64,000 bases of DNA from Dehalococcoidia bacterium (GTDB taxonomy: Bacteria > Chloroflexota > Dehalococcoidia > Lucifugimonadales > G965248475). The notes under the pieces are model-generated. The model made no database searches. It was not told the DNA's origin and worked only from the letters and a program-made list of their open reading frames with translations. Made by a program: the position numbers and the translations under genes. Positions 5,644 to 63,592 of the stretch are shown piece by piece. How positions within the stretch are numbered: position 1 is the stretch's first letter; every line of letters begins with the position of its first letter. The stretch is from contig OZ252106.1 in assembly GCA_965248475.1 (NCBI GenBank), positions 1,583,640 to 1,647,639 on the forward strand, in the 5' to 3' direction.

Positions 5644-5657
5644 ATACAGAGGCAGGC

Positions 5658-7906: not shown

Positions 7907-8283
7907 TGAAGAAATCTCTGGGCCGGCTTAGCTTGCTTAGATACTTGACGCGATATAGCAAATGGCGAAACACTTGCCAGGGGCATACGCGACCATCTGG
8001 GTAGCAGTAGCCTAGCTAGCATGGATATTCATAAATTAGCTGGCGCATTTCTGTCGTATTCTGGTAACGAAGCCCTTCCAATCCCTAGCCCATGAACTTT
8101 CCGAAAGTGCCCTACAGGTCAGTTCAATGTGCCGACAGCACCTAAGAGGTCTTATCAGCGGCCTAGAGGGACTGATTGGGGATGTGCTGGAGGATGTTGG
8201 GTGAAAGCGGGTATTTTGTGGAGTCCACCATCCAAAAGGGCACCAGGGAAGCCGACAATGATCCGACATGGAGCGATGAAGTG

Positions 8284-15606: not shown

Positions 15607-15702
15607 ATGCGTACCTCCTGTGCAGATTGTCTAGCTGGGTGCTGACGGTGGCGCTTGCCCGCGCCTAAATGAACAGATTGTAGAGGCCAATGTTGGCGGC
15701 GG

Positions 15703-16506
15703 TTATTCTAGGTGCTGCTTCATCCCGGGAGTTCGCGCCGTCTCGGCACACGTTTCCGAGTGGGCTGTCAGATTGTGCTCATTGATGCGGCGCTTCACTG
15801 TCTTCAGAAGCTCTTCAGGTGTATGGACGATCCAGACATGATCCAGCACTTGGCTGGAGTGGAGGCTTGCCTGGGTAAAGGGCGTGGCGACGGCGATAAC
15901 GTTCATCCCGGCGGAGACGGCCGCCTGCACGCCATTGGGCGAGTCCTCAAGCACCAAGCATTCGACAGGGGTTACTCGCAGCGTGGCGGCCGCCAGTTCG
16001 TATATCTCCGGGGCCGGTTTGGGCTGCTCCACATCTTCACGAGTAAACAGTGCATCCAGAGACGCTTCCAGGTCCAGAGCGCGCAGGACGTGCATGACCT
16101 CTTTGCGATAGGACATGGTGGCGAGCGCGGTCCGACATGAGGTATCTCTGGCCATCCGAAGCAGCTGGATGGTATGAGGCCACTGGTTGTCCCGCAGCAC
16201 CTGGGGGTCGGCTACCATCTTATCGTAGATCTTCTTGCGCATGGTGCTGAGCACCTGTGCGGGTTCGGAAGCGCCGTATTCGACCATAAGAGGATGCAGG
16301 TCTTTCTCCAGCTTAAGGCTTTCCATGACGTGGCGTGAGGCGATGTCCCTGGAAGCACCGACTATTCCCCGGTACGCCTCTATGGCCCTGGGGTCCGGCC
16401 CCGGCAGGCCCAGAAGGTCCTGAGCAGCGATAGCGTACGATTCGGCCTTCAGTCTTTCAGACTGGACCAGCGTGCCGTCCAGGTCGAAGATGATGACCCT
16501 GATCAT
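15703..16506 (-). CDS. HAD-superfamily hydrolase (beta-phosphoglucomutase-like subfamily IA)
   Basis: Motif I FDLDGTLV, motif IV LEDSPNGVQAA. Confidence 0.85.
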   Translation of the reverse strand: MIRVIIFDLDGTLVQSERLKAESYAIAAQDLLGLPGPDPRAIEAYRGIVGASRDIASRHVMESLKLEKDLHPLMVEYGASEPAQVLSTMRKKIYDKMVADPQVLRDNQWPHTIQLLRMARDTSCRTALATMSYRKEVMHVLRALDLEASLDALFTREDVEQPKPAPEIYELAAATLRVTPVECLVLEDSPNGVQAAVSAGMNVIAVATPFTQASLHSSQVLDHVWIVHTPEELLKTVKRRINEHNLTAHSETCAETARTPGMKQHLE

Positions 16507-16531
16507 GGTAGGTTGCGTGCGTCCGTGGCTT

Positions 16532-16874
16532 TCAGGCCGCCGCTCCTTTAGTCTCGACCGCCTGAGAGCTCGCCAGCGCTCGCAGGCGCTCCAGGATCAT
16601 CGGCGTTGTAGGCCAGCCCCTTAGCCCCTCCTCCGTCTGGAACAGCCGACAGCTGAACCCATACTAGTCCGCGTCCTCGGGAAACAGGTCGTTGCCGGAG
16701 ACCCGGAGGGTCGGGGGGGCCTTGAAACCGCAGCTCGTCGGCATTGGCTTGGTCCTTCACCTCGATCAGGGAGACCTCCATGTCCAAGCCGTGGAGGGTA
16801 AGGGCCTGCCTCAGGTTCTCAAGGGCCTGGTGCCAGGACGGACATCCGTCAAAGTAGAGAAGTTCTAAAACCAT
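16532..16874 (-). pseudogene. Thioredoxin-fold small protein, disrupted (G7 frameshift + in-frame TAG)
   Basis: AGGAGG-6nt-ATG 16874. MVLELLYFDGCPSWHQALENL...ELRFQG, then the frame breaks at the G7 run 16713..16719. The shifted frame gives PPTLRVSGNDLFPEDAD-TAG(16666..16664)-YGFSCRLFQTEEGLRGWPT... Confidence 0.6.
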
Positions 16875-17005
16875 AATATTCCTCCTGTCAGCCAACTCCT
16901 GCGGCCAGCGCGCGCAAGCCCGATGCGTAGTCCTGTCCAAGCTGTATCCTGGCAACGCGACGGTCCAGTTGCTGCAAGACCCGGAGGTCGCCCAAGGCCT
17001 GGGCA

Positions 17006-18145
17006 TCAGCCAGGACGGACGTAGGCCAGAAGTTGTGCCTTTTTCTCCTGGATGTTGATCAGAAGCTTGTCGAAGGAGTCGGCGAATGCCTTGAGGCCGT
17101 CGCTCAGGAGGCCATCGGTGACATGCCGCATATCTATACCGGCTGCCTCTAGCGAGTCCAGGGTGGTCCGGGCCACTGTCGTGTCCCGCTCCAGGGTTGT
17201 GTTGGCTTGGCCGTGCTCCAGGAACGCGGTTAGTGTGTCCGGGGGCACGGTGTTGACCGTATCCGGCCCGATGAGAGACTCTAGGTAGAGTACATCGCTG
17301 TAGGCAGGGTTCTTGGTGCCTGTGCTGGCCCACAGCGGCCTCTGTACCCTGGCGCCCCCAGCCTTGAGGCCGGTGAACCGCTGGCTGTCGAAGGCATCCC
17401 TGAACGCCCGGTACGCAAGTTTGGCGTTGGAGATGGCCGCCTTGCCCATGAGAGACGCAGCCTCGTTCGAGCCCTGGCTCGCCTTCCCATCCAGCATGGC
17501 GTCCACGGCGGTATCCACCCGGCTGAGGAAGAAGGAGGCGACGGATGCCACTCCGGCGAGGTCACCGCCGCCACGGGCGAGGTCCTCCAGGCCAGCTATG
17601 TAGGCCTCCATCACCTGCTTGTGTGTGTCCAGGGAGAAGATGAGTGTGACGTTGACGTTGATCCCTTGGCCGATCAGGGCGTGCACGGCAGGGATGCCCT
17701 CGGCGGTGGCGGGCACTTTGATCATTACGTTGGGGCGGTCCAACGCAGCGTATAGACGCCTGGCCTCCGCGACGGTGCCTTCCGTATCGTGCGCAAGAGT
17801 TGGACCAACCTCCAGGCAGGCGTAGCCGTCGGCACCGCCGGTGCGGTCGTATATCGGTCGGAGAAGGTCGGAGGCCCAGCGAATGTCCTCCAAAACCAGC
17901 GCCTCGTAGGTCTCCTTTGCGGTCTCCGGTGTGCTCGGGCCATCCTGGACCAGGGACAGCAGGGCCTGGTCGTAGTCGGTGCTTCCGGCGATGGCCTTCT
18001 CGAAGATCGTGGGGTTGGATGTCAGGCCGGTAACACCCTGCTCTATGAGGCGCTTTAGCTCTCCGGAGGTCAGGAGACCGCGACTAACGCTGTCGTACCA
18101 GATGGACTGTCCCAGTCTCTGGGTCTGCTGGACGGGGTTGTTCAT
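17006..18145 (-). CDS. tal: Transaldolase (long actinobacterial-type)
   Basis: [11 protein letters not shown]...[13 protein letters not shown] motifs. 4-nt overlap with the tkt stop. Confidence 0.93.
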
Positions 18146-20160
18146 GCTACCTTCTCCTGTACTAGCTGCGCGGCCTGGTTGGCCATGTGGCGGGCGGTCA
18201 ACCCGAACTGCTGATAAAGGGTCTCATAGGGTGCCGAGGCACCGAAGTGGGAGATGCCCATGGCAACGCCGTCCAGGCCGACGTACCGTTCCCAGCCAAG
18301 AGGGGTAGCGGCCTCTATGGAGACCCTGGCCCTGAGATCAGGCGGTAGGACGGCAGTGCGGTAATCCAGGGGCTGAGCGTCGAACAACTCCCAGGAGGGC
18401 ATGGATACGACACGCGCGGCGATACCGCGGCCCTCAAGGGCCTTGCCCGCTTCAAGCGCCGTGTGAGTTTCTGAGCCGGTACCTATGAGGATGACATCCG
18501 GTGTGGAGGAGGCGTCCCATAGTATGTAGCCGCCTTTTTGGACACCGGTTGCGCTGGCGAGGGTAGACCGGTCCAGCACAGGCAGGTTCTGGCGGCTGAG
18601 CACCAGGGCTGCGGGGCCGGACCACCGTTCCAGGGCCACCTTCCACGCCTCTACTATCTCGGTGGCGTCGGCGGGACGGAGCACCACCAGGTTGGGGACT
18701 GACCTGAGACCCAGTAGTTGCTCTATCGGCTGATGAGTCGGGCCGTCCTCTCCCAGGCCGATGGAGTCATGGGTAAAGATGTACACCACCCGCTGCTCCG
18801 TGAGGGCCGCCAGTCGCATGGCAGGGCGCATGTAGTCGGAGAAGATGAGGAAGGTCGCGGTGTATGGGATGATCCCGCCGTGCAGAGCCATCCCGTTGGC
18901 TATGGCGCCCATAGCGTGCTCCCTGACGCCGAAATGCATGTTGTGACCGCAGTACTCCTCAAAGCCGTAGTGCCCGTGGTCCTTGAGGAGGGTCTTGGTA
19001 GAGGGCGCCAGGTCCGCCGAGCCGCCGGTGAAGGCGTGAATTCGTGATGCGATGGTATTCATGGCCAGTCCCGAGGCCTCTCTTGTAGCGATGGGCTTAT
19101 CGCCGTCGTTGAAGAGGCGATCCAGGTCGGTGGTCCAACCTTCGGGCAGATCACCGCGCAGGTCCTCCTCAAGCTGGGTCGCCTCGTCCGGATACGCCTG
19201 ACGATAGGCCTGCAGCACAACCTCCCACTCCTGTTGACGCTGCTTGCCCAGCTCCAGGGCCTGACGGAAATGGGCGAGGGCTTCATGCGGAACTGCGAAT
19301 GGCTCGGGGTATGGCCACTCCAGCTGCTCCTTAGTAAGGCGCACCTCCTCTTCGCCCAGGGCCTCGCCGTGGGCTGAGGCTGTGCCGGCCTTATTGGGGC
19401 TGCCGTAGCCGATGGGGGTCCGGCAGATGATGAGGCTGGGGCGGTCAGCGGCACTCTGGGCCATGCGTATGACAGAGTCCACCGAATCAGGGTCCATGCC
19501 GTCAATGGGGCCCACGACGTGCCAGCCGTAGGCCTGGAACCGCTGAGCTACGTTTTCTGCGAAGGCTATATCTGTATTGCCCTCGATGGAGATGTCGTCG
19601 TCGTCGTAGAGGTATATGAGCTTGCCCAATCGTAGGGTACCCGCCAGAGAGGCCGACTCGGCTGCTACCCCTTCCTGAATGTCACCGTCGGAGACGATAG
19701 CGTAGGTGTAGTGGCTGATTATCTCGTGGTCGGGGCGGTTGTAGTGGTCCGCCAGCCACCGCTCGGCGATTGCCATGCCCACGCCGTGGGCGAACCCCTG
19801 CCCCAGGGGCCCAGTTGTCATCTCCACGCCAGCTGTCAGGCGGTACTCAGGGTGGCCTGGCGTTTTGCTCTCCCACTGGCGGAGCCGCTTGAGTTCATCC
19901 AGCGGCAGGTCATAGCCGGTGAGATAAAGGATAGCATAGAGTAAGGTATAGGCATGACCGGGAGATAAAATGAACCTGTCTCTGTCCGGCCAGTGGGGGT
20001 CGCCAGGGTTGTGAGTGAGGAACCGATCCCAGAGGACGTAGGCCATGGCGGCAGCGCCCATGGGAGTGCCTGGGTGGCCTGAGCCGGCCTGCCGCACAGC
20101 ATCCACCGCCAAGAACCGAATTGTGTTGACACAGAGGCCTTCAATGTCAGTAGTGGTCAC
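18142..20160 (-). CDS. tkt: Transketolase
   Basis: 672 aa. GSGHPG, ThDP-binding region and [18 protein letters not shown] signature. SD GGAGG before GTG 20160. Confidence 0.95.
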
Positions 20161-20204
20161 GCATCCTCCAGCACTTCATCTACCGAGGTCATATATCTAT
20201 TGTA

Positions 20205-20526: not shown

Positions 20527-21039
20527 TGGTATCAGCTCCTGTCTACACCCTTAGATGCCCGTGATGACATCGGGGTACATTTCATGGAAACGGAACATCT
20601 GGGTCAATAATATTTGCGCCCGTGAGCACTTCAGTTCCGAGGAAGTCAGGTATGCAATTGTTCTCCGGGGAGATGTCGTGGATCAACTGCGGGTTTCGGC
20701 CCGGATGATGCTGATGACGATAATGACTCCGCGACTGGAAAATGACGATCCGACTATCTCAGATGTCGAAGATTGCGTTGCTCTCCACGACAGCATCGTA
20801 TCACCCCCCCCTCCGTTGCGAATTTGCCAGAAGGCCAGGAACGGCAAATAGCAGTTTGCAATTGCATCTCGCTCGTTTCGTGGGCATCTAAACAGAGTGC
20901 GACGTGGTTTGGGCAACCGAGCACACCTTGACCGCTGTGTATTAGCGAAGCACAGCAATTCACCAGGCGGCACTGCTTTTAGACTATCGTCGGGAGCGTG
21001 TACCGGCCCGTCACCGCCGACATTCAGGAGGAGAAGAAA

Positions 21040-21555
21040 TTGAGCCAGCTGACAGAGTTCCGCACTCAGAAGGACAAATTCTTCGCGAACGACCACCACT
21101 CCCCCCTTCGACAGCAGCAGAGAGATACCTTCAAAGGTCTGGCCTACTTCGGAGAAGACTCACTACTGCACCTAGAGGTGCAGGTCGAGGAGTATTCAGA
21201 GAATCAGCTTGTGGAGATCGCCACCAGCACCGGTGACGTCCAGACTTACGAGCGATGGGGAAGGTTCACGTTCGAAGTCTAGGGAGAGGCGGCAGAGCTG
21301 ACGGTCTACAGAACTGGCCACAGCCTTTTCCTGCCCTTTGCCGATGCAACAAACGGCGCGGACACCTATGCGATGGGTCGCTACGTCGAACCCGAATCAA
21401 TAAGTGGGAACAAGATACTGGTGGACTTTAACCTGGCGTACAACCCTTACTGCGCCTATAACGAAGACTGGAGTTGCCCAATTCCGCCAGCCGAAAACCG
21501 TGTCAGTGTGCCAATTGGTGCTGGGGAGAAGGCCTTCGGGAGCTCCGCCCACTAG
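21040..21555 (+). pseudogene. DUF1684 protein interrupted by one in-frame TAG
   Basis: AGGAGGAG + TTG 21040. Track ORFs 20998..21282 and 21373..21555 share one frame. ..GRFTFEV-TAG(21280..21282)-GEAAELTVYRTGHSLFLPFADATNGADTY..VDFNLAYNPYCAYNEDWSCP is one continuous DUF1684 domain. Confidence 0.75.
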
Positions 21556-22731: not shown

Positions 22732-25272
<2,541 letters not shown>

Positions 25273-28045: not shown

Positions 28046-28405
28046 TCAAACTTGGGCCACCTTGCGCCTCCGTTTGACGACGCCCGCTACCGCAACAGGG
28101 ATGGCGATGGCTGGCACGATGCCGGTCCACCAAAAACAGGCTGCCACAGGCAGTGCACCTGCCGCTAGTAGAGCACCACCATTGCCCGACTGTGAGCGGG
28201 CAGAGCCCCAGGCGCCTGCTGACAACGCAGCTCCACCGATAAGCAAGACAACGGCAACTCCCAGTTCCATCCCTCGTCCGCCGACATCTACGGGTATGAA
28301 ACCTGCTAGATACAGGACGCTGCCGGCGAAACTGACAAGTGCCAAGAGGGTCGCCGCACCAAGAAAGACCACCAAAGTTACTCTCGATCCGTTCATCTGC
28401 ATCAT
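28046..28405 (-). CDS. Small 4-TM membrane protein
   Basis: The ATGA start/stop overlap with the upstream gene at 28402..28405 suggests translational coupling. Hydrophobic Gly/Ala-rich TM segments and a KRRRK tail. Confidence 0.6.
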   Translation of the reverse strand: MMQMNGSRVTLVVFLGAATLLALVSFAGSVLYLAGFIPVDVGGRGMELGVAVVLLIGGAALSAGAWGSARSQSGNGGALLAAGALPVAACFWWTGIVPAIAIPVAVAGVVKRRRKVAQV

Positions 28406-29061
28406 CCTGCTTCGCCCTCATCCGCGACAAAGAAATCTGTTGCTCCAACAGTCCGACGCTTGCTCGTCTTGTAGGCCTGGAAAAGTCCCAATAGCACCAT
28501 GAACCCGCCAATGATCGGAAGGATAACCGTCCATTGCCACGCGAAGCCGAACACGACCGCGCCCATCATCAGTGTGATGACGCCAGCCTGCGGCCTGCGA
28601 GCGAGTATGAGAGCGCCCCACATCACCGCGAGCCCGTCTACCAACAAAATCGCTGCGCCCAGGACTGGATCAGCCTCATTCATAGTCGGAGGGTGTCCCA
28701 GCACAGTGCCTGCGCTGCCGACAAGGCTGAGGAGGCCTATGATCACGGCCAGGCTGCGGAAAGCCCATCCTGCCGCTCGTGTTCTCACGCCCTCCTCCGT
28801 GTGTACGTCTCTGGCACGGATGTGTGCCAGCCGCCATATGAGGTCGTCAGGGAGACCCAGCAGCCAGCGGAGCAGCAGGTGCGTCGCCAGCGGAGGGCCA
28901 TCCCTTTGCACCGTCTCCGCTTCCTGCGATTGATCCCAGAAGTCGGCGTCGATTTCCTCGCGACGGGAGTCGCGAAGGCCTGACGGAAGACCGGCGGTAT
29001 AAAGGCGTACCCAAGCGCGCACGAAACCAACAGAGCGGGGCATGAGCCCAGTGCTACTCAT
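28402..29061 (-). CDS. Membrane sensor-like protein, paralog A (PadR-associated)
   Basis: ATG 29061 aligns with the start of paralog B. The same frame stays open upstream through PadR (see findings). The N-terminal cytoplasmic helical domain + 4 TM resembles the DUF1700-type partner of PadR regulators. Confidence 0.7.
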   Translation of the reverse strand: MSSTGLMPRSVGFVRAWVRLYTAGLPSGLRDSRREEIDADFWDQSQEAETVQRDGPPLATHLLLRWLLGLPDDLIWRLAHIRARDVHTEEGVRTRAAGWAFRSLAVIIGLLSLVGSAGTVLGHPPTMNEADPVLGAAILLVDGLAVMWGALILARRPQAGVITLMMGAVVFGFAWQWTVILPIIGGFMVLLGLFQAYKTSKRRTVGATDFFVADEGEAG

Positions 29062-29202
29062 GGGATGCCTCGCTCGGGTCGCAGAGTCGGCGTGGCGCGC
29101 GCGCTCAGTGTGGTGCTTGGCGAGTGCTGTTTCGCCGGCCATTGTCACCCGATAGAAGCGACGCCGGGGCCGGCCTTCATCAGCCGCGACCTGCGGGTCC
29201 TC

Positions 29203-29415
29203 TCAGTAGCTGTCTAGGAAGCCCACCTTCTCCAGTCGGGCCAGGGCCTTGTAAAGGGTGCCGTAGGCGGTGAGCAGCCGTGCATCGGCTCGGTCCCGCA
29301 TCTCCTTAGCGAGTAGGAAGCCGTGGGCGGCTTCGAGGCCTCTCTTCCGCAGGTCGAGGCCAGCCTCCATAATGGATGCTTCGAGTGGTACGAGAGCACC
29401 TGCTTTTCTCCGCAT
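29203..29415 (-). CDS. PadR-family transcriptional regulator, ends at a TGA on the conserved Trp position
   Basis: wHTH HGFLLAKEMRD...YGTLYKALARLEKVGFLDSY-TGA. The frame continues in-frame as EDPQVAADEGRPRRRFYRVTMAGETAL, the missing PadR C-terminal helix. Confidence 0.8.
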   Translation of the reverse strand: MRRKAGALVPLEASIMEAGLDLRKRGLEAAHGFLLAKEMRDRADARLLTAYGTLYKALARLEKVGFLDSY

Positions 29416-29584: not shown

Positions 29585-29961
29585 ATGGCAATCGCAGCAA
29601 TGAAAAAGTGGCTGATACCGTTACTGACCATATCCGTTAGCCTGCTGGTGGGGGCCGCCTGTGGGGGGATGCAACAACCAGCCCTACGCCGACACCCCCG
29701 GTGACTCAAGAGTGGGAGCTGGAAAACATCCAGACGTTCGGCCCCACCGTTACGGTGTCGCTGCATATGTTTTCGGGAGTCGACGTGCAGGTGACGCTGG
29801 ACGGCAGGCAGGCCGATGAGGTCCGACCCGCCCTTCCAACAGTTGAGTACATTTTCAACGACGTGAGTGCGGGAAGGTATACGGTAGAGGTCCGGGACGT
29901 GGTCTGCTACAGCGAGACCGCCGAGGTGGCTGTGCCCACCTCGCCACCACTTTCGCCGTAG
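29585..29961 (+). pseudogene. Lipoprotein with Ig-like beta domain, frameshifted at a G6 run
   Basis: GGGAG + ATG 29585. MAIAAMKKWLIPLLTISVSLLVGAAC signal/lipobox. The frame breaks at G6 29663..29668. With 7 G it reads CGGDATTSPTPTPPVTQEWELEN..., joining track ORF 29701..29961. Confidence 0.65.
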
Positions 29962-30045
29962 CAGACGGCCCTTATCAGGAAGCTGGAAAACGAACCCGTA
30001 GCCAACCCACCCGCGTCCCTGACCCAGTACGGATACAAGGGCCAG

Positions 30046-30717
30046 GTGGTTTACTACGTACCGCCACGATGCTGCGACATATTCAGCGACCTGTACGACG
30101 ACAGCGGCAACATCATCGGCCACCCGGACGGCGGCATCACCGGCCAAGGCGACGGGCGTGTGCCGGACTTCATGGCGGAGCGAGAGGACGAAATCTTCGT
30201 GTGGAAGGACCTGAGGAGCAACGACCCAGCTTTGGTCCAGGTACCGGCCCCTATAGACAGTGTGGATATCCTGATATTGGAGAGCTTCCCGCCCCAGTAC
30301 AATGTAGTGCTAACCTCTGGCCTGCCCAACGGCTGCGCTTCATTTGCCGGTTACTACCTGAACCGTAACGACGACACCATACGTGTGGATATGTTCAACT
30401 GGAAACCGGCATCGCCTGACGTTGCGTGTACAGAGATATACGGGACAGTGGAGACCGTCATCGCATTGGGCAGCGACTTCGTCTCTGGCGAGAGTTACGC
30501 GGTGGTTGTCAACGACGTTACCAAAAGCTTTATTGCGCAGCAACAGGTGAAAGGAAACCTACGTGGGACAGGCAGTCGAAGTTACCATGGGGGGCACCAC
30601 CTACAGCGTTGCCGCAATACTAGTCGTAGCGGCCCTGTTGATCCTGGCCATAGCCGTGGCGGTAGGTGGTGTCATCGCTTACCGCAGGAAGAGGGAGGTC
30701 ACGATGGAAAAGAATGA
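30046..30717 (+). CDS. Cys-rich exported domain protein (DUF6970-like + ILESFP beta module); real 5' end lies upstream of 30046
   Basis: QYGYKGQVVYYVPPRCCDIFSDLYDDSGNIIGHPDGGITGQGDG matches my recollection of DUF6970. The conserved part starts at 29962, right after TAG and without a start codon. The 3' end is uncertain (junk-like tail after ..SFIAQQQ). Confidence 0.6.
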   Translation: MVYYVPPRCCDIFSDLYDDSGNIIGHPDGGITGQGDGRVPDFMAEREDEIFVWKDLRSNDPALVQVPAPIDSVDILILESFPPQYNVVLTSGLPNGCASFAGYYLNRNDDTIRVDMFNWKPASPDVACTEIYGTVETVIALGSDFVSGESYAVVVNDVTKSFIAQQQVKGNLRGTGSRSYHGGHHLQRCRNTSRSGPVDPGHSRGGRWCHRLPQEEGGHDGKE

Positions 30718-31001: not shown

Positions 31002-31226
31002 ATGGATTGGGGCGCGATTATTCAACTGACGCTGGCAATCGGGGGCGGGGCGCTCATAGGGGGCGGCATCATCGCATATCGCAGCGGCCAGCGGGGTATG
31101 GCCCGGCCGGTTGCCGCCGCCGCCGTCGCAGCGGGAGCAGTCATGTTATTGGTGGTCGGGTTCACAGTCTCCGTATCCAGCAGCGGCGAGCCATCGAGCC
31201 CCGTTATCGAGTTATCGAATGAGTAG
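31002..31226 (+). CDS. Small 2-TM membrane protein
   Basis: GGAGG 7 nt before ATG 31002. Two Gly/Ala-rich hydrophobic helices. Confidence 0.55.
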   Translation: MDWGAIIQLTLAIGGGALIGGGIIAYRSGQRGMARPVAAAAVAAGAVMLLVVGFTVSVSSSGEPSSPVIELSNE

Positions 31227-31309
31227 AAACGTTGGCACAACTCGACCAGCAAGCGAACTGGTCTCACGAAATAGATATCCAGAATAGTTCCGTTGAAAAG
31301 GATAACGCA

Positions 31310-32203
31310 ATGAAAACCTGGTTGATACTACTAATGGGATTGACCCTGGCACTGGCCGCTGCCTGCGCGTCTGGCGAAGGCACCTCACCCACCCCGAACG
31401 CTGAACAGGTGATCGCAGGAACCCTTAAGGGAGCGGTGACTATAGGCCCGCTGTGCCCCATAGAGCCATGCAGTGAATCATCCGGCTACCCCTTCTCGGG
31501 CAGAGAACTTGTGCTTCAGCAGCCGGGTGGAGTGGTGCTCCAGGTCCCGCTGCAATCTGATGGCACCTTCGAGTTCGTCTTTCCCATAGGGACTTACACG
31601 GTACATATGTCGCCATGTGAGTACCTGGGCTGCCAGGCCGCCTTTCCTGTCTCCGTGGACATCATGGACGGAGAGACAACCACATTGAACATCGACATCG
31701 ACACAGGAATACGGTCTCCCGTGGGGCAGTCCGAGGCGTACGACCTGTACCAGGCCCTGCGTGCCACAGGGGTGTCCGTGAAGGTCGGCGGAGCCATCGG
31801 CCAGGTGTTCTTCAGCGTGCCGGGACAGGTACTGACAATAGACGGGACCGACGTCCAGGTGTTCGAGTACCCCGGGCCGGCCGAAGCTCAGAGCGATGCT
31901 GACCAGGTCGCGCCGGACGGGGGTTCTATTGGGCCGACCATGATCACGTGGGCTGCTACGCCCCACTTCTACAGGCTGGATAGCGTTATTGTGCTCTACG
32001 TCGGCGACGATGCGGCCGTATCTCTGCTATTGGAAGAGGCGCTGGGTGCACCATTCGCCGAGGGCGATCCGGCAATGACGAACGGGGCGCCGCCTGAAGA
32101 AGGTCAGGACGAAGAGACGTTCAGCAACCTTCTAACCCTGCTTGATGTGGAGCCGCTTCTGGCTTCTCCGGTGCGCCTTAGCAGCGAGATAATCGACTAC
32201 TAG
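31310..32203 (+). CDS. Lipoprotein with carboxypeptidase-regulatory-like beta-sandwich domain
   Basis: MKTWLILLMGLTLALAAAC signal peptide with Cys. TLKGAVTIGP...DGTFEFVFPIGTYTV resembles the CarboxypepD_reg fold. The track start at 31232 is too far upstream. Confidence 0.7.
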   Translation: MKTWLILLMGLTLALAAACASGEGTSPTPNAEQVIAGTLKGAVTIGPLCPIEPCSESSGYPFSGRELVLQQPGGVVLQVPLQSDGTFEFVFPIGTYTVHMSPCEYLGCQAAFPVSVDIMDGETTTLNIDIDTGIRSPVGQSEAYDLYQALRATGVSVKVGGAIGQVFFSVPGQVLTIDGTDVQVFEYPGPAEAQSDADQVAPDGGSIGPTMITWAATPHFYRLDSVIVLYVGDDAAVSLLLEEALGAPFAEGDPAMTNGAPPEEGQDEETFSNLLTLLDVEPLLASPVRLSSEIIDY

Positions 32204-32242
32204 AAGGGGGCCGAGGATGTAAACCCGGCCCAGGTCGTCAAC

Positions 32243-32562
32243 ATGGACAGCTGGTACGGCCTGGTCGTCGCTGCGACCGGCAGCGGGGCAGGCATGACGA
32301 TCGGAGTGATCGACTTCGTATCAGTGTCCGCAGCCCAGGAGCATTACGGGCTCGTGATGGAAGGGTTGGTGAACATGACCACGCCTATTGGAGACGCCTC
32401 TGCCGAGCTAGAGGTGAACGCCCAGGGCATTGGCAGCATGCTTGTATTCATATACGGGGCAAGGTTGTATCACTGCATACGGCACAGGCAGCGGAGGATG
32501 AGCCGCTGGTCTCCCTGAAGGGCCTGAAGGATTTGGCTGATCTCGTGATAAGCAGGCTGTAA
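32243..32562 (+). pseudogene. Hypothetical protein, frameshifted at a G4 run; in frame with the upstream gene across TAG
   Basis: After ..GSMLVFIYG the frame breaks at 32456..32459. With one extra G it reads GKVVSLHTAQAAEDEPLVSLKGLKDLADLVISRL-TAA (32560..32562). Confidence 0.5.
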
Positions 32563-46505: not shown

Positions 46506-47545
46506 CTATGTGGTCAAACCCCGACCCGGCAGTCCGGCATCCTTGAGCAAGGCTCCACGCTCCCGGCCTATCTTCCTGAGCTCCTTTGCGGCATCCCTCG
46601 ACATCTCACGCAGCTCCGAAGCAGGCCGTCCGCTCTCCAGCCACTCCCTCAACTCGTCCGCATCAAACCTGGGCAGGGACTCAGGAGAGATAGCGATGGT
46701 CGGAGGTGCGACCTGGCTCGGCACGGCGGGCAGAGGCCGGGGCCGGTTCTGATTGGGTCGCTTGAAATAGTCTCGCGGCCAGGCCAGCACCAGGTCAACA
46801 TGACCGTCCTTTTCCACCACGAGCACCGGGGTGTCCTCTCTGAGCCCGGACAGGTCTATCCTGTGCCCGCCGACGATCACCCTGGTCTCATCGTCCGTTT
46901 GAAACTCGACCATCGTGTCATCCTTGCGCACTATGATGAGGCTCACATCGGTAGCCGTCTGCACCCTGCCAGCGGTCAGATCGATAGTAATGACCTGGCC
47001 ATCTCCACCCAGAAGTTCGAATTCCGCGTGCAGCAGGTTCCCGGGCAGGTTATTCCCGATGATACGCCGCAGGTAGTTGGGCAACGGGTCCCGCTGGCGT
47101 TGCAGGGAATCGTTCGGCTGGGGACGAGGCCGTTCAGCCAGCGTGGCCTCCACAACCAACTCATCCCCGTCGCGCAGTATGGTCAAGGTCACGACGGTTC
47201 CAGGAGGCAGTTCCCGGATCGTCTGCAACCCTGCCTTGCGGTCTCCATCGGCTCGCCGTCTATAGCCGCCAGAACGTCACCCTGCTGGAGGTCTGCCTCA
47301 TCAGCGGGGCTGTCATCCTGCACACCCGCGATGACTACGCCGGACGTGTACTCGATCTCCAGGCGCTCGGCGATATTCTCGTTCAGGTTCACGACTCTTA
47401 CGCCCAGCCAACCGTGTTCGGTCTGAGCCTCTTCTTGTTGGACGGCGGGGGCTGAAGGAGCGGCGCTCCCTCCGGCGGCGGCCACCCCGACCAGGGAGAC
47501 CAGGCCCAGGACTCCAATCAGTAGGACTGCAACAAATCGTTTCAT
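46506..47545 (-). pseudogene. Secreted PDZ-domain protein, frameshifted inside the PDZ
   Basis: Signal peptide MKRFVAVLLIGVLGLVSLVGVAAA. The PDZ GWLGVRVV..SGVVIAGV..DLQQGDVLAAIDGEPMETA breaks at 47229..47231 and resumes as LQTIRELPPGTVVTLTILRDG in track ORF 46506..47228. Confidence 0.7.
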
Positions 47546-47717
47546 AGTTTCACTCCTCGGTTAAGTCTTGCACCAGAGATAACGGGAGAGGAGTGAAAGG
47601 TGTCAGGTGTAGGTTGCGCTTGTGGAGGTTACGTCAGGTCGGGTGTAGGACGCATGGCGGGCCTTGATGTCGTGCTCCGAAGAAATATGGGTGTCCCAAC
47701 GAGTCGGGATCCGAGGC

Positions 47718-50082: not shown

Positions 50083-51011
50083 TCACTGAGTGAGGTTGGG
50101 GTATCTCTCACCCGTATCAGGCAACACCGTGACAACCACCTTGCCCTCACCCAGGCGCTGCGCAACCTGGAGTGCCGCCACTACGTTGGCTCCCGAAGAG
50201 ATACCAACCAGCAGGCCTATCTCGCGGCTCAACCGTAGGGTGGTGTCTATGGCTTCCTGAGTGGTGACGGTAACCACCTCGTCAACGATGTCTCGATCCA
50301 GAATGGACGGCACGAAGTCGGCACCGATACCGACTATGCCGTGGTCTCCCGCGCTGCCTCCATTGAGCAGCGGTGACGTGTCAGGCTCCACAGCTACCAC
50401 CAGCACCGAGTCGTTGGCGGCCTTCGGCGCCCGTCCCACGCCCGTCAGCGTCCCGCCTGTGCCGACACCGGCCACAAAGGCGTCAACCCGGCCTTGAGTC
50501 GCATCCAGTATCTCCCTGCCGTGCCCTCCTGGTGGGCTTTAGCATTGGCGGGATTGTTGAACTGATCCAACATCAGCAGACCATTATTGGAATCCAGCAT
50601 CCGTCTTGCCGCCAGGTTTGATCCATCCACACCCATGTCTGCAGGTGTCAGGTGGACCGTGGCCCCGAACCGGGCGACCAACCGCCGCCGCTCCAGGGGT
50701 ACGCCCTCCGGCATCACAATGGAGACCTGGTAGCCCTTGGCGGCACCCACTACAGCCAGGGCAACGCCCATGTTGCCTCCCGTCGATTCGATTAGGCCCA
50801 TGCCGGGCTTGAGCACGCCCCGTGCCTCAGCGTCCTCCACCATTGCCAGGGCCGCGCGGTCCTTCACGCTTCCACCGGGGTTCAGGTTCTCCAACTTGGC
50901 CAGGAGCTGCGCCGACCCAGGCGGTTCCAGGGCACGCAGCCGCACCAGGGGTGTGTTCCCTATGAGAGCAAGAATGCTATCGCTTAGAGCGTTGTCCAAG
51001 GTGCTCGCCAA
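50083..51011 (-). pseudogene. PLP-dependent cysteine synthase family protein (CysK/CysM-like), frameshifted
   Basis: GNTPLVRL, PGGSVKDRAA (PLP Lys). ..NPANAKAHQEGTA breaks at 50514..50516. The shifted frame gives (G)EILDATQGRVDAFVAGVGTGGTLTGVGR, joining track ORF 50083..50475. SD GGGAGG + TTG 51011. Confidence 0.8.
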
Positions 51012-51214
51012 TGTCGCCTCCCGTGAAGGGCCATTCTGTCATGCGGCCATAGGCTGCGGTCAAGAGGCAGGAGGGAAGACGAGGTTCGATTGTCTCCCCT
51101 TGAAACCGACTGTTCTATTTAGAGAATGCGGTGTCCCGGATTTGCGATTGGCGCGATCCGTTGATTGTATGCGAGAGAGCACAACTACCTCGCACCATAG
51201 CTATACAGTAGCCA

Positions 51215-52727: not shown

Positions 52728-54782
52728 ATGGCGAACCGGCTCAGCAAAGAGACCAGCCCCTACCTCCTACAGCACGCCAACAACCCCGTTGACTGGTACC
52801 CCTGGGGCCAAGAGGCATTCGACCGGGCACGCGCCGAGGACAAGCCCGTTCTCCTGAGCGTCGGCTACGCCGCATGCCACTGGTGCCACGTCATGGAACG
52901 AGAGTCGTTCGAGAACGAGGCAACCGCCAAACTCATGAACGACAACTTTATCGCCATAAAGGTGGACCGGGAGGAGCGCCCGGACGTGGACTCCATCTAC
53001 ATGCAGGCGGTACAGACCCAGACAGGGCGCGGCGGCTGGCCCATGACCGTATTCATGACACCGGAAGGCAGGCCATTCTTCTGCGGCACCTACTTCCCGC
53101 CCCAGGACATGCACAACATGCCCGGCTTCCCCAGTGTGCTGGAGGCCATCGCAAAGATCTATCGCGAACAGCGCGACGAGACGATAGTTTCTGCGGACCA
53201 GCTCACCGAAGAGCTGCGTGGCAGCGCGATCACGTCGCCGGAAACCGAGCCGATAACGCTGCAGGTACTGGTGCGCGCCTACCAGAGCCTGGCTCCAGAG
53301 TACGACAGCGAGCACGGCGGCTTCGGCACCGCACCCAAATTCCCACAGCCGATGGTGTTGGAGTTCCTACTGCGGTACCACGCCCGCGCCGCCGACGCCC
53401 AGGCTCTGGCTATGACCGAATTCACACTGGACAAGATGGCACGCGGCGGCATGTACGACCAGCTCGGCGGGGGGTTCCATCGCTACTCCACCGACCCATT
53501 CTGGCTTGTCCCACACTTCGAAAAGATGCTATACGACAACGCACTGCTCAGCCGTGTCTACCTTCACGCCTACCAGGCAACCGGCAACCCAGAGCATAGT
53601 CGCATCGTCGAAGAGACGCTGGACTACGTGCTCCGCGAGATGACCAGCCCGGAAGGCGGCTTCTACTCCACACAGGACGCGGACAGCGAGGGCGAGGAGG
53701 GCAAATTCTTCCTCTGGACGCCCCAGGAGATTGAGGAGGTGGTAGGCGAACGCGAAGCCGCCCCTTTCAACCTCTACTACGACGTCACGGCCGAGGGCAA
53801 CTTTGAGGGACGCACCATACTCCGCATCATCGAAGACCGAGACGATGTGGCAGAGAGCCTGGACGTCACAGGGACTGAGCTGGCAGAGATCGTCAAGGAG
53901 ACAGCCCAGAATCTGCTCGCCCACCGTCAGACCCGGGTGGCGCCAGCCAGGGACGAAAAGGTGCTCACGGCCTGGAACGGCATGATGCTCCGCACCTTTG
54001 CCGAGTCTGCCGCCACGCTGCACCGCGCCGACTACCTGGATGCGGCGGTGCGAAACGCCTCCTTCCTTCTGGACACCATGCGACCCGCTAATGGCCGTCT
54101 TCTGCGGACATACAAGGACGGCGAGGCGAAGCTGAATGCATACCTGGAGGACTACGCCCATCTTGCCGACGGCCTGCTGGCCCTGCACGAGGCCACCCTG
54201 GACATACGCTGGCTCCAGGAGGCCACTACGCTGGCCGACGCTATGCTGGAGCTGTTCTGGGACGAGGACGAGCAGGGTTTCTACGATACTGGACTCGACC
54301 ACGAGGAGCTGATCCTGCGGCCCAGGGACCTGTGGGACAACGCAACGCCCAGTGGCAGCTCCGTTGCCACGGATGTATTGCTAAGGCTGTCCATACTGAC
54401 AGGCAACCAGGAGTACAACCGCCGCGCCGCCGCAGTACTTCGCTCCATGAAGGTTGTCCTGCCCCGTGCGCCCGCGGGCTTCAGCCACTGGCTCTGCGCC
54501 CTGGACTTCCACCTGTCCACGCCCAGTGAGATCGCCATTGTCGGGCCGAGAGACGACGACGCCACCCAGGCGCTGCTGGACGAGGTGTACAGCCGCTACC
54601 TGCCAAACAAAGTCCTCACTGGCTTCGATCCCGCCCAGCCAGACGGCGCATACGAGCTGCCCCTGCTGGAAGACAAGTACATGGTGAATGACATGCCTAC
54701 CGCCTTCGTGTGCCAGAACTACGCCTGCCAGCTACCCGCCACGGAGCCACAGGCGCTGGCGGAGCAGCTTACCGAGGGGTAG
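52728..54782 (+). CDS. Thioredoxin-domain protein YyaL (DUF255 + (alpha/alpha)6 barrel)
   Basis: [18 protein letters not shown]...[14 protein letters not shown]-terminal DUF255 signature. 684 aa. Confidence 0.92.
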
Positions 54783-55034
54783 CGACCACAGTACTCTTTC
54801 ATCGCCCATCGCCTGTGATTGCGTTTGGGAGCTATCTCCGGGCGCAAGCCTATGTTGGCACACGTACCATTGCCGACTTAATATCCGTCGTAGGGGTATG
54901 ATTCAAATGTCGTTTATGATCAGCCAATGGCAAGCACCTGGCGATGTTGGAGGCCGCATGACTGGCGAAGCGTCCAGGCTCCAACCACGTAGACTGCCAC
55001 TAAGGCCAAGCAGCTCGGGGCTTGAAATAGCACT

Positions 55035-55352
55035 ATGAGCGGAATAACTGCGGGCTGGATACTGCTGGCCATTGGCGGGTCCATCGGTCTTCTAAACTTC
55101 CATCTCTCATTCACCCGATATCTCTACCACCGTCTTCGGCGACGTCGAGAGGAATACCATTTCATATCCAGGTTTCCGTTAATCGGCTCACTTCTTTGCC
55201 TGCTCTCGATCCCGTTTTTCCCCACACCATCCGTTCCACAGCTCATTGCAATAATCGCTGCGCTCGTCGATACCGCCGGGATACACTGGCTATTTGGTGC
55301 ATTTTTGTGGGATCTGTGGGACCGGCTACGTGGGACCGATTCAACCAACTAA
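55035..55352 (+). CDS. Small membrane protein encoded within the insertion after yyaL
   Basis: 105 aa, 3 hydrophobic helices. Lies between the two copies of the yyaL 3' end. Confidence 0.5.
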   Translation: MSGITAGWILLAIGGSIGLLNFHLSFTRYLYHRLRRRREEYHFISRFPLIGSLLCLLSIPFFPTPSVPQLIAIIAALVDTAGIHWLFGAFLWDLWDRLRGTDSTN

Positions 55353-55375
55353 TAGGCAACGCTGCTGGAGGACAG

Positions 55376-55480
55376 GTACATGGTGGATGACAGGCCCGCC
55401 GCCTTCGTGTGCCAGAACTACGCCTGCCAGATGCCCGCCACGGAGCCACAGGCGCTGGCGGAACACTTACCGAGGGGTAA
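55376..55480 (+). pseudogene. Displaced duplicate of the yyaL 3' end
   Basis: About 90% identical to 54677..54782. Encodes [29 protein letters not shown], then a 1-nt deletion shifts the last codons. Confidence 0.85.
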
Positions 55481-55548
55481 CAGCTATGGATGCCGGAATT
55501 ATACTCAATTGGATACTGAATAGGCCGGACTCCCGCGCCTGAGCCAGC

Positions 55549-56787
55549 CTATCGCGCCGGGCCAGCCCTAAGATGAGCGGCCCACCGGGTCAGCCAGTAG
55601 GCAGCTAGCCCCGCGCCTGCGCCGACGGCCATGTTGCCGAACGGCATGAGCACCACCAAACCCACCAGGCCCACCACCGCCAGATGTGGCAGGGAGCTCA
55701 CCTTCAGCCCTAACAGCAGGTGCTGCGCGCCCACGTATATGAGCAGCGCGCCGAGCACGGCGTAGGGCATCAGGCTGCGTACATCCAGGGCAGACAGGCC
55801 GAATAGAAGGGCAACCAGTATGAGCACCAAGCCGATCACGGTGGTCGCAACGGGTGTTCTGGCGCCTGTACGGTAGTGCGCGGTCAAGCCGCCGGAGCCG
55901 TGGCACATGGGCAGACCACCTACCAGACCGGCCCACAGGTTACCTGCGGCGATGCTGAGGCTGGTACGGACGGGTGTAACACGTGCAGAATCCGGCCCAA
56001 AGTATGTACGGGCGGTGTCCACAGTGGCGACAACGGAGTTGGTAAGTGTGAGCGGTAGCTGTGGGATAACCAGCATCACCAGGGCGGTTTCAAAGTCGGC
56101 CAGAGGCGGCCAGGCCAAAGACATGGGCACCGGGCCAAAGGTGAGGTGCGCCTCGCCATCACCGAGCAGCAGGCCGACCAGCACACCCCCCACAGCCACA
56201 ACAGCCGCGCCGGGAAGCCAGGGCCGCCACAGGAATAGCAGCAGGAGCACCAGGCTGCCGATGCCCACCAACAGGCCCACCGACACATCCAGCCCGCCTA
56301 TGTCCAGGTACCGCTGACCCTCACCGCCGATAAGGAAGGGTTTAGACAGGACCATTTTCACGGCGCTGCGTATCAGCACAAGCCCCAGGGCGAATTGGAC
56401 GCCCCGCACCACAGGCAGAGATATGACGCGTGTCAGGTACTCCACACCCCGAGTGGCGGCCAGCAGGAACATGGCCAGGCTCATCAGAAGTGCACCGGCT
56501 GCGATAACCGAAGGAGTCACCGCCTGGGCAATCGCGATGGCCGAGAATGCCTTGAGGGGCTGCACGGGCATGGGCAGACGGAAGTACCAACCGGCGGCGA
56601 TGTAGGCTATGCCCACTCCCAGAAGCGTGGATGTGGGGTTGATGCCGTTCACCGCGATGAGCGCAGCCTCCAGAGGTATGAGCACCCCCAGGTCGGCGAA
56701 GGCACCGCTGACCTCGCTACGGGTCAACGCATAGGGGCCAATGCGCACACGAACGGTTCCATGCATACTAGGATTGTCGCATGGCAC
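55549..56787 (-). CDS. Inorganic anion transporter (sulfate/molybdate transporter-like)
   Basis: About 12 TM. EVSGAFADLGVLIPL near the N-terminus resembles the MOT1/SulP-related family. The start may be ATG 56766. Confidence 0.65.
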   Translation of the reverse strand: MPCDNPSMHGTVRVRIGPYALTRSEVSGAFADLGVLIPLEAALIAVNGINPTSTLLGVGIAYIAAGWYFRLPMPVQPLKAFSAIAIAQAVTPSVIAAGALLMSLAMFLLAATRGVEYLTRVISLPVVRGVQFALGLVLIRSAVKMVLSKPFLIGGEGQRYLDIGGLDVSVGLLVGIGSLVLLLLFLWRPWLPGAAVVAVGGVLVGLLLGDGEAHLTFGPVPMSLAWPPLADFETALVMLVIPQLPLTLTNSVVATVDTARTYFGPDSARVTPVRTSLSIAAGNLWAGLVGGLPMCHGSGGLTAHYRTGARTPVATTVIGLVLILVALLFGLSALDVRSLMPYAVLGALLIYVGAQHLLLGLKVSSLPHLAVVGLVGLVVLMPFGNMAVGAGAGLAAYWLTRWAAHLRAGPAR

Positions 56788-58567: not shown

Positions 58568-59185
58568 CTACAGCTTGCCTTCCCAGTGGGAAATATCGTT
58601 CCACCGCTCCAGCACGGCCCTGTCCTGAGACACCCGCAGGATAGAGATACTGGCGTTATCCAAATAAAACCTGGAACGGAGCGACATTGGGACGCCCAGC
58701 ATGCTCACCGCAAGCGTGAGAAATGCGCCGCCGTGACCAACCAACGCGATGGTCTGGTCTCCAGGGTAGGTCTCCCGCAGCATTCCTGTCAGACCTAACT
58801 GCCTTGCCAGTACGTCAATCAGGCTCTCTCCGTCCGGCGGACTGAACTGTTCGGTTCCCTGCCTCCACCGAGCATACTCCTCAGGGTACTCATCTCGAAT
58901 CTCTTGACGGGTCATGCCCTCCCACCGGCCATAGCTCCTCTCCCGCAGGTCGCTGGTCGGATGTACCTGGATGCCTCGCCCCGTAGCGATCATTTCGGCG
59001 GTATCTCTGGCCCTGGGCAGGTCGCTGCAATGTATGGCATCCAGCTCAGTGTCTTTTAGTCGCTCGGCCAGCAACTGCGCCTGGAGCAGACCTGTTTCGC
59101 TTAGGCCCGTTGGCGTGTGCCCCTGCATCCGGCCTTCAGAGTTCCATTCCGTCTCGCCGTGGCGCACCAGCAGCCATAGAGCCAT
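58568..59185 (-). CDS. Histidine phosphatase family protein (possible alpha-ribazole phosphatase CobC)
   Basis: LVRHGETEWN RHG motif and VGHGG. The CobC suggestion rests only on its position after the B12-riboswitch operon. Confidence 0.75.
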   Translation of the reverse strand: MALWLLVRHGETEWNSEGRMQGHTPTGLSETGLLQAQLLAERLKDTELDAIHCSDLPRARDTAEMIATGRGIQVHPTSDLRERSYGRWEGMTRQEIRDEYPEEYARWRQGTEQFSPPDGESLIDVLARQLGLTGMLRETYPGDQTIALVGHGGAFLTLAVSMLGVPMSLRSRFYLDNASISILRVSQDRAVLERWNDISHWEGKL

Positions 59186-59262
59186 TTCAACCTACCTCTC
59201 AGGACGGGAGGATATCACGGATACGGACACTCTGGCACGACAGGGACGAGCGGCTAGCGCTG

Positions 59263-60452: not shown

Positions 60453-60723
60453 CAAAAAACCCGGCTCTACTCAGGCCGGGTATTCACCAGTAATCGGCAG
60501 CTCGTGGGGCGTTGACGAAAAGCTACCGGGGCGTCCTCTGTATGGCGCAGAGTAGAACTCACGCTACCCAGGTAGGTCTCCTGACTCACGGATCGTCACC
60601 CGCCGACGCCTTCCCATCCCGACAGCCAGGACAGTGGCATGATGCCAACAGGCTCCCCGTTTACAGTGGCGCAACCGTGGCGGACTCACACCGCCTTCCC
60701 TTTTCAGCCGGTACAGCACCTGG
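60453..60723 (-). promoter_or_regulatory. Cobalamin (B12) riboswitch with intrinsic terminator
   Basis: P1 CCCAGGU..ACCUGGG. Core AAAAGGGAAGGCGGUGUGAGUCCGCCACGGUUGCGCCACUGUAAACGGGGAG. GCCACUG..GGGAAGGCG. B12 box GAGUCAGGAGACCUACC. Terminator CCCGGC-9nt-GCCGGGUUUUUU at 60479..60453. Confidence 0.9.
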
Positions 60724-60765
60724 GAGCTTCCAATATTCGATTGTTAAGGAATCTCGGATCGGGGC

Positions 60766-61271: not shown

Positions 61272-61306
61272 GATGCGCCGCTATCGTGAATTAGGTACGT
61301 TTAAGC

Positions 61307-61375
61307 TGCCCGGCCTGGGTTCGAACCAGGGACTTCAGCTTCAAAGGCTGACGTGCTACCGCTACACTACCGGGC
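61307..61375 (-). tRNA. tRNA-Gln (anticodon UUG)
   Basis: Hand-folded cloverleaf: acceptor GCCCGGU/GCCGGGC, anticodon stem UCAGC/GCUGA with loop CUUUGAA, T-arm CCUGG-UUCGAAC-CCAGG. CCA is not encoded. TATAAT at 61402..61397 lies upstream. Confidence 0.85.
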
Positions 61376-61523
61376 AACGCATATCCAACCAGAGTCATTA
61401 TAGCTGATTGCTATGGGTGAGCCATCTGCAGCCCTCAGCGGTTGCTAACGGCGGGCGCATGAGCTACATTGTCGCTTGACCCCAAAACTGATACCACACC
61501 CCATATGGACAGAGGAGGCTCCG

Positions 61524-62884: not shown

Positions 62885-62914
62885 CGCTCCAGGTATCCAG
62901 TAAAGGAGATCGCT

Positions 62915-63451
62915 CTGGAAAAACAGAACAGGGTCCAGTGGGTCTACTCCTCAGCCAGCAACCGGGAGCTTCAGCAGCGATACGACGAGTGGGCGTCCAC
63001 CTACGACACCGACCTGGAGAACGACTTCGGTTACGTAGGGCCGTGGGTGGCCCCAGACCTATTTGCCAGGCATGTTGCCACAGACGCATCTGTGCTGGAC
63101 GCCGGAGCCGGTACTGGACTGGTCGGCAAGCTGCTGGCGGAGAAAGGCTATGGGCAGATCGATGCAATGGACCTGTCGGAAGGGATGCTGGAGGAGGCGC
63201 GCAAGACCGGGGCGTACAAGGCGTTCCACCAGATGGTGATGGGCGAGCGCCTGGACTTTCCAGACGGTGCCTATGACGCTGTTGTCGCCATAGGCGTCCT
63301 TACCATCGGCCACGCGCCTGCAAGCTCCCTTGACGAACTGGTGCGTGTGACCAGGCCGGGCGGGCAGGTCCTGTTCTCCATGCGCCCTGACATCTACGAA
63401 AGCGACGGCTTCAAGGACAAGCAGTCGCAGCTGCAGTCCGACGGCGCATGA
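62915..63451 (+). CDS. Class I SAM-dependent methyltransferase; CTG start; frame continues past TGA to 63541
   Basis: AAGGAG-6nt-CTG 62915. No ATG/GTG/TTG occurs before the conserved YDEWASTYDTDL..GYVGP N-terminus. Motif I VLDAGAGTGLVG. After TGA 63449..63451 the frame reads QFVEVTDPFRPLPKGEPEAYSQIYVFRQT-TAA. Confidence 0.8.
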   Translation: MEKQNRVQWVYSSASNRELQQRYDEWASTYDTDLENDFGYVGPWVAPDLFARHVATDASVLDAGAGTGLVGKLLAEKGYGQIDAMDLSEGMLEEARKTGAYKAFHQMVMGERLDFPDGAYDAVVAIGVLTIGHAPASSLDELVRVTRPGGQVLFSMRPDIYESDGFKDKQSQLQSDGA

Positions 63452-63592
63452 CAGTTCGTAGAGGTTACCGACCCGTTCAGGCCTCTGCCCAAGGGTGAGC
63501 CAGAGGCCTATTCCCAGATCTATGTTTTCCGGCAGACATAAGCCGCCAGACCCGGGCAAGCGCATTCATTACTGCATGCCAGAGGTGACACC

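Follow-up and report, generated by a model that had tools for sequence, protein, structure and literature searches.

Introduction

Decoding of UGA as tryptophan is described in genomes that use genetic code table 4 and as read-through, either near-cognate or by a tRNA-Trp with a 4-bp anticodon stem (PMC13092985). A tRNA-Trp with such a stem or a suppressor tRNA could boost UGA decoding, and suppressor tRNAs are present in 0.3% of standard-code genomes (PMC13092985). Misreading of UGA by tRNA-Trp is documented in Escherichia coli and Bacillus subtilis, and a C following the stop codon (+4C) raises read-through in yeast (PMC5289835). Initiation at CUG reached about 1–2% of initiation at AUG in a first reporter assay in E. 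coli, and the near-cognate group gave 0.02–3% in a NanoLuc assay (10.1101/063800). An excess of internal stops and frameshifts in public genomes is often an assembly artefact (Cooley and Wright, 2024; PMC11017572).

METTL27 (WBSCR27)-like methyltransferases are common in metagenome-assembled genomes (MAGs) of Dehalococcoidia and other Chloroflexota. Here we analyse a gene of this family that carries CTG at its start position and an in-frame TGA at a tryptophan position. It lies in a 64-kb stretch of DNA, referred to throughout as the window, from a 2,400,261-bp public contig (NCBI/ENA). The contig is presumably a long-read assembly, judging from its size and its uncultured Chloroflexota lineage. 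Sequence error or recent damage is a better explanation of the CTG and the TGA than an unusual genetic code.

Methyltransferase locus

The locus has the following features:

62903–62908, + strand: Shine–Dalgarno-like AAGGAG, followed by a 6-nt spacer and the start position
62915–62917, + strand: CTG at the methyltransferase start position; TTG in the closest relatives, a T-to-C transition
62915–63448, + strand: methyltransferase coding sequence, codons 1–178, including the SAM-binding LDAGAGTG; matched by Pfam and by structure
63449–63451, + strand: in-frame TGA on the invariant Trp-179 column, next base C; TGG in relatives, a G-to-A transition
63452–63541, + strand: 29 sense codons past the TGA and then TAA (63539–63541); homologous to the C-terminal end of intact proteins of the family
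63479–63509, + strand: perfect 9-bp hairpin with a 13-nt loop, within coding sequence, starting 27 nt past the TGA

The original prediction, made from the sequence alone, had placed the ribosome-binding motif, spacer, CTG, TGA and TAA at these positions, and every coordinate holds. There is no uninterrupted ORF with a canonical start, given CTG at 62915 and TGA at 63449. The first in-frame ATG, GTG or TTG is GTG 63047, which lies 3' of the conserved N-terminus and well within the conserved domain. Homolog N-termini (M-E-x-Q-N-R-V-Q-W) align exactly to L-E-K-Q-N-R-V-Q-W of the window at the CTG, and in relatives AGGAG stands at equal spacing before the TTG start. The predicted placement of the conserved N-terminus upstream of any canonical start is thereby borne out; on this alignment, translation must begin at the CTG position for that N-terminus to be made.

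Two Pfam profiles match the read-through product, Methyltransf_11 (PF08241; E = 1.1e-16, 61.6 bits against a cut-off of 21.2) and Methyltransf_25 (PF13649; E = 3.9e-16, 60 bits against a cut-off of 27). Its closest solved structure is human METTL27 (7qcb, E = 8.6e-24). Trp-179 aligns to the Trp of G-V-W-E-C-L in that structure, in agreement with the G-x-W motif that the original prediction gave for METTL27-like proteins. The SAM motif I, LDAGAGTG (xDxGxGxG; GxGxG), is invariant in 25 aligned sequences. Among NCBIfam profiles, none reached an equivalog match to the read-through product. By its profile and structure matches, the gene is an otherwise ordinary METTL27-like class I SAM-dependent methyltransferase, as the family assignment in the original prediction had it.

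The codons beyond the TGA supply most of the two final beta-strands of the protein. In the AF2 model of P0001, a homolog 83% identical to the window protein (pLDDT 87), residues 179–184 and 200–207 form strands, and the first of these begins at the residue encoded by TGA in the window. These C-terminal strands of the Rossmann sheet are encoded in the window only 3' of the TGA.

Homologs and related loci

When 5.8 billion proteins were searched with the read-through product, 3,459 matched. The best matches are 208–220 residues long and cover 99–100% of the query; the few that are named come from Chloroflexota or Dehalococcoidia MAGs. The TGA column is W in 24 of 24 aligned homolog proteins, and the 29 C-terminal residues align with homologs without gaps. 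Homologs thus cover the read-through protein in full, with Trp at the column and a homologous extension of 29 codons; they neither end at the TGA position nor lack similarity past it. Among 73 related loci, 72 reach the Trp column, and all 72 have TGG there; none has TGA. The proposal that the TGA occupies a Trp position is well founded at both levels.

The start codon is TTG in the closest relatives (L001–L005; five loci, two distinct sequences) and ATG in most others. These closest relatives are 82–83% identical to the window methyltransferase in protein sequence. In every relative the gene is in its normal form: an ORF of 208 codons that starts with TTG or ATG and has TGG as codon 179. Gene order is shared as well: the window and the closest relatives have a hydrolase, a 160-aa ORF, the methyltransferase and a PNPOx-like gene in common. 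Compared with these sequences, the CTG and the TGA are lineage-private single-base transitions.

Elsewhere, L001 carries, at 879–3162 between the DsbH-like and MOT1 transporter genes, an enoyl-CoA hydratase gene, a DAO oxidoreductase gene and an ORF of 68 aa. The syntenic segment of the window, 54782–55549, is only about 770 bp long, and those genes are absent or degraded.

The window copy has evolved like an intact gene. Mean identity to 21 outgroup proteins is 0.618, compared with 0.616–0.651 in three intact relatives, and for the 29 C-terminal residues it is 0.49, compared with 0.37–0.58. The window copy has 39 unique nucleotide substitutions, 12 of them at codon positions 1 and 2, and the relatives have 50 and 45. 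No accelerated evolution or relaxed constraint was seen relative to the intact relatives. An old pseudogene is ruled out, as divergence and constraint match those of intact relatives. Because the two changes are private to the window and the gene shows no decay, they are either very recent or not real.

No copy of the methyltransferase locus closer than 64% was present in the genome collection. A degenerate 49-nt pattern, searched in metagenome contigs, found only L074 (12,153 bp), a contig equal in length to L002 and presumably the same P0002-type relative.

Meaning of TGA in the window

TGA is an ordinary stop codon here. The pth coding sequence ends AAMNRYN-TGA, and the next gene encodes an unrelated secreted protein. 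In the G6PD and transaldolase genes, TGA comes a few residues past the end of the Pfam domain; transketolase and LigA also stop at TGA. A crude self-trained gene call gave 51 predicted ORF stops, comprising 28 TAG, 19 TGA and 4 TAA.

A genome-wide, table 4-like reassignment of UGA to Trp has in its favour the two TGAs that fall in frame on Trp columns in these 64 kb, but in this GC-rich member of the Chloroflexota such a code deserves hardly any credence. TGA terminates the five genes above and others. Read-through of G6PD would cross five further TGAs into neighbouring genes, and when the whole window is read with table 4, unrelated genes are fused and many TGAs are crossed. The window has 252 in-frame TGG codons compared with two TGAs at Trp columns. 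It holds no tRNA-Trp(UCA); its only tRNA is a tRNA-Gln.

Several other features of the window were recorded. TAG is the commonest stop among the predicted ORFs, at a GC content of about 60%. The tRNA-Gln(TTG) is at 61305–61376. A cobalamin riboswitch (60554–60737, - strand, 114 bits) lies upstream of a minus-strand operon that contains, among others, a pair of small ORFs and, at 58568–59191, a His_Phos_1 (CobC-like) gene. An intact pentose-phosphate cluster occupies 10697–20175 (- strand) and encodes transketolase, transaldolase, a HAD hydrolase, a 6PGDH-like protein, G6PD and 6-phosphogluconolactonase; a GH15 glucoamylase/trehalase-like gene comes after it.

Hairpin downstream of the TGA

The hairpin arms are AGGCCTCTG (63479–63487) and CAGAGGCCT (63501–63509), and the element spans the codons for R-P-L-P-K-G-E-P-E-A. 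The original prediction had described a strong, perfect 9-bp hairpin 27 nt past the TGA. The hairpin is there, perfect and at that distance, but its strength is no more than chance: the 72-nt segment that begins with the TGA has a folding energy of -19.1 kcal/mol, compared with -18.1 ± 2.8 kcal/mol for shuffled sequences (z = -0.37). About 10 distinct perfect 9-bp hairpins with loops of at most 20 nt occur in the window. Counted as overlapping registers there are 22, compared with 5.7 ± 3.1 in Markov simulations. Folds after the PadR TGA (see below) and after both in-frame TAGs are unexceptional.

Pairing of the stem is not maintained in relatives. At the nine stem positions in 71 homologous loci, the mode is four of nine paired, compared with about 3.4 by chance. 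Eight of nine pairs are reached only within the closest clade; in L001 the hairpin is missing. The hairpin is incidental, being neither exceptional nor conserved. The stem results from codon choices for the conserved peptide R/Q-P-L-P-K-G-E-P-E-A. A conserved read-through hairpin was considered and ruled out by the shuffles, the number of similar hairpins and the pair conservation in 71 loci. There is likewise no sign of programmed read-through among relatives, since none of the 72 has a stop at the column and the hairpin is absent from L001 and most loci.

An in-frame TGA with a stable hairpin downstream could also be read as selenocysteine with a bacterial SECIS element, and NCBIfam includes selenoprotein families with a methyltransferase domain. 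Bacterial SECIS elements directly follow the UGA. Here the hairpin starts 27 nt further on, and its pairs are not kept in the 71 loci. The column is Trp (TGG) in all 72 loci, never Cys or Sec, and the NCBIfam selenoprotein methyltransferase families score 27–43 bits against cut-offs of 380–575. None of selA, selB, selC and selD was found within the 64-kb window. With the Trp column and scores so far under the cut-offs, the selenocysteine reading was rejected, and we give it next to no chance of being right. Programmed UGA-to-Trp decoding and selenocysteine are not supported, and selenocysteine and a genome-wide table 4 are both effectively excluded.

Other lesions in the window

We searched the window for in-frame stops flanked by coding signal and followed these with homology checks. 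An automatic scan for frame switches at homopolymers of at least 6 nt gave nothing at strict settings, and the frameshifts were found by homology. At least 10 ORF-breaking lesions are present in seven of about 60 genes, the methyltransferase included, and about 11% of the genes in the window are broken. Six lesions are of substitution type and four are 1-bp indels, two of which are in G/C runs (G6 and C7). Those outside the methyltransferase are:

21280–21282, + strand: in-frame TAG in a DUF1684 gene (20998–21555); column D/G/N/S/H in homologs, not Trp
23042–23048, - strand: seven-C run (G on the + strand) in a flavin-reductase-domain gene; two frames, restored by six C
29203–29205, - strand: TGA at an invariant Trp of a PadR-family regulator; W in 10 of 10 homologs, and Pfam PadR spans the site
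29663–29668, + strand: six-G run at the lipobox of a DUF6970 lipoprotein gene (29585–30542); 1-bp indel
29959–29961, + strand: TAG at an invariant Trp of the DUF6970 lipoprotein gene; W in 11 of 11 homologs, TGG in relatives
30540–30542, + strand: lost stop of the DUF6970 lipoprotein gene, CAA for TAA (T to C); TAA in relatives
47230–47245 (near 47236–47240), - strand: 1-bp frameshift in a secreted PDZ-domain protein gene (46506–47560); gene split
50445–50538, - strand: frameshift in a cysteine-synthase-like PALP gene (50083–51038); GGG, where GGGG would restore the frame

The PadR site is the second TGA on a Trp codon that had been proposed for the window, and it proves genuine as a sequence feature. 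The gene extends on the minus strand from about 28402 to 29415 or 29460 and has a long membrane C-terminal region fused to it. Database protein P0121, a public gene call of 219 aa on the 2,400,261-bp contig, matches the part past the TGA at 100% identity and begins only after that codon. The public record thus contains the TGA, which its annotators, too, took for a stop.

Three of the lesions fall in the DUF6970 lipoprotein gene. Its signal peptide and mature protein are in different frames, joined by the indel in the G run; the reconstructed 319-aa protein has 98–99% coverage against 319-aa homologs. At the Trp site, L075 and L076 read CCG TGG CAG where the window reads CCG TAG CAG. The lost stop adds about 58 codons, which have no counterpart in homologs. 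The poly-G tract, directly at the lipobox Cys, could in principle be a phase-variation switch. In L075, the relative that carries P0149, IS3-family and Transposase_mut genes (4548–5764 and 7290–8186) flank the lipoprotein gene; the contig name indicates about 2x coverage.

In the PALP gene, the Pfam profile is divided between two ORFs, with positions 3–147 in one and 147–295 in the next. As in the PDZ gene, the frameshift is of 1 bp and lies in a short run. The flavin-reductase gene (22732–23150, - strand) adjoins or overlaps the ligA start region at its upstream end. At 32201–32203 (+ strand), a TAG separates ORF 31223–32203, which is lipoprotein-like and has no Pfam match, from a coding-looking ORF in the same frame (32204–32518); this could be a further in-frame stop, or the two could be adjacent genes.

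The lesions have several properties in common. All five polarisable substitutions are transitions (two T to C, three G to A). Of the nine lesions counted before the PDZ frameshift, eight have a neighbour within 1.8 kb (P ~0.008 under uniform placement). Three of the four premature stops are on Trp codons, compared with an expected 17–40%, depending on transition bias. The large housekeeping genes show no break anywhere in their Pfam domains. On inspection of the substitution sites, no convincing common sequence motif of the kind that would hint at methylation-linked base-calling error was seen.

No codon reassignment can account for a set that takes in TAG stops both at Trp and at a D/G column, the loss of one start and one stop codon, and four frameshifts, in a window where TGA terminates genes normally. 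The pair of TGAs, with the recoding that it implied, turns out to be one part of a wider set of lesions that includes the TAGs, the lost stop and the four 1-bp indels. The implied recoding or hairpin-assisted read-through at the methyltransferase is likewise unsupported, given the absence of TGA from 72 loci, the TTG start in relatives, the ordinary TGA stops and the unconserved hairpin.

Origin of the lesions

If the TGA alleles are real, they might be decoded as Trp at a useful rate, so that methyltransferase and PadR of full length and wild-type sequence are still made. The route would be misreading of UGA by the wild-type tRNA-Trp(CCA), perhaps aided by the weak UGA-C context, or decoding by a variant tRNA-Trp or a suppressor whose gene lies outside the window. 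Both TGAs fall exactly on invariant Trp columns, where tRNA-Trp would restore the native residue, the 29 codons past the methyltransferase TGA are fully conserved, and there is precedent for UGA misreading, the +4C effect (PMC5289835) and suppressor tRNAs (PMC13092985). We nevertheless consider this reading decidedly unlikely. No relative of 72 has the TGA, the methyltransferase also lacks a canonical start, many genes use TGA as an ordinary stop, and Trp decoding cannot rescue the TAG at Trp, the TAG at the D/G column, the lost stop or the four frameshifts. The base after the PadR TGA is G, not C; the hairpin is unconserved and unexceptional; and tRNA-Gln is the only tRNA within the window. 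Nothing in the 64 kb positively supports leaky Trp decoding. The more specific version, in which both TGA alleles are real and are usefully decoded beside RF2 by a UGA-reading tRNA-Trp (either a UCA suppressor or one whose anticodon stem has 4 bp), is very improbable. If it were true, reassignment of UGA to Trp would be at an early stage, with the codon still ambiguous, in a free-living lineage of high GC content, and genuine UGA-to-Trp decoding, improbable as it is, would bear on how codon reassignment starts in GC-rich genomes.

The changes may instead be real and recent. The methyltransferase would then be a young pseudogene, or an allele that is almost silent, and would count among several dispensable genes of the strain struck by transitions and short-run indels. 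Such mutations are typical of lineages that are poor in mismatch repair or under relaxed selection. The lesions are clustered, three in the lipoprotein gene and two in the methyltransferase, as expected for a gene that is already dead; all five polarisable substitutions are transitions; and all large housekeeping genes are intact. In the model, the TGA-truncated product of 178 residues would lack strands 179–184 and 200–207, and CUG is a weak start in E. coli (10.1101/063800). If the alleles arose by recent mutation, the methyltransferase is essentially off, and genes in the window were inactivated in an unusually dense burst. Against this, no neutral decay accompanies the lesions, as the substitution count and codon-position ratio match those of intact relatives; no lesion is shared by any relative; and about 11% broken genes, a cysteine-synthase-like gene among them, is high for a 2.4-Mb genome of a free-living type of Chloroflexota. 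Recent inactivation is the second most likely explanation, though we do not expect it to be the correct one.

With moderate confidence, we infer that the lesions are residual consensus errors in the assembly rather than real alleles, and that the organism itself probably has an intact gene and no recoding. The normal METTL27-like gene, as found in the relatives, is disrupted in the window copy by a pair of transitions, TTG to CTG at the start and TGG to TGA at codon 179. Both belong to a window-wide set of at least 10 single-base lesions in seven genes. The lesions, their absence from relatives, the ordinary use of TGA as a stop and the lack of a conserved RNA element are observed; that the lesions were left as consensus errors in a presumably long-read 2.4-Mb assembly is the interpretation. 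Consensus error is favoured because of the 1-bp indels in G/C runs, the transition-only substitutions, the lack of decay and the published record of such artefacts (PMC11017572). In the methyltransferase and lipoprotein alignments, intact orthologs in relatives differ by a single base at the lesion.

Our confidence goes no higher because there are more substitutions than indels, the lesions are concentrated in a few genes outside the housekeeping set and three of the four stops are on Trp codons; these properties also fit real recent inactivation. Six substitution lesions to four indels is not a typical profile for a long-read consensus. Were substitution errors random, the six that break ORFs would imply about 170 hidden in 57 kb; no such excess was seen in two genes, where the relatives, about 14% different in DNA columns, are too far away to exclude one. 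The clustering (P about 0.01) is also compatible with continued decay of dead genes. On the error reading, the methyltransferase, PadR, DUF6970, DUF1684, flavin reductase, cysteine-synthase-like and PDZ genes are mis-called as fragments. An apparent assignment of TGA to Trp in a single window can arise from a mere G-to-A change in TGG.

Comparison with known systems

As in the known UGA-to-Trp systems (table 4, or read-through that is near-cognate or due to a tRNA-Trp with a 4-bp anticodon stem; PMC13092985), UGA is found here on Trp columns, and misreading would restore the native residue. Unlike in those systems, its use is not systematic, TGA is the normal stop, the TGA is not conserved, and other stops and frameshifts occur alongside. 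The locus resembles bacterial selenoprotein genes with SECIS elements in having an in-frame TGA and then a hairpin. It differs from them in having Trp, not Cys or Sec, at the column and a hairpin that is 27 nt away and unconserved.

The spurious or young pseudogenes of PMC11017572 share more with the window: internal single-base stops and 1-bp indels, some of them homopolymeric, in well-conserved genes, with several such genes in one region of a very long metagenome-type contig. Here, in contrast to those cases, substitutions outnumber indels and the lesions are clustered. With METTL27-like methyltransferases, the gene shares its Pfam domains, the SAM motif, a length of about 208 aa if intact, the Trp-179 column and synteny with relatives. 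It departs from them in having CTG for TTG or ATG and TGA for TGG.
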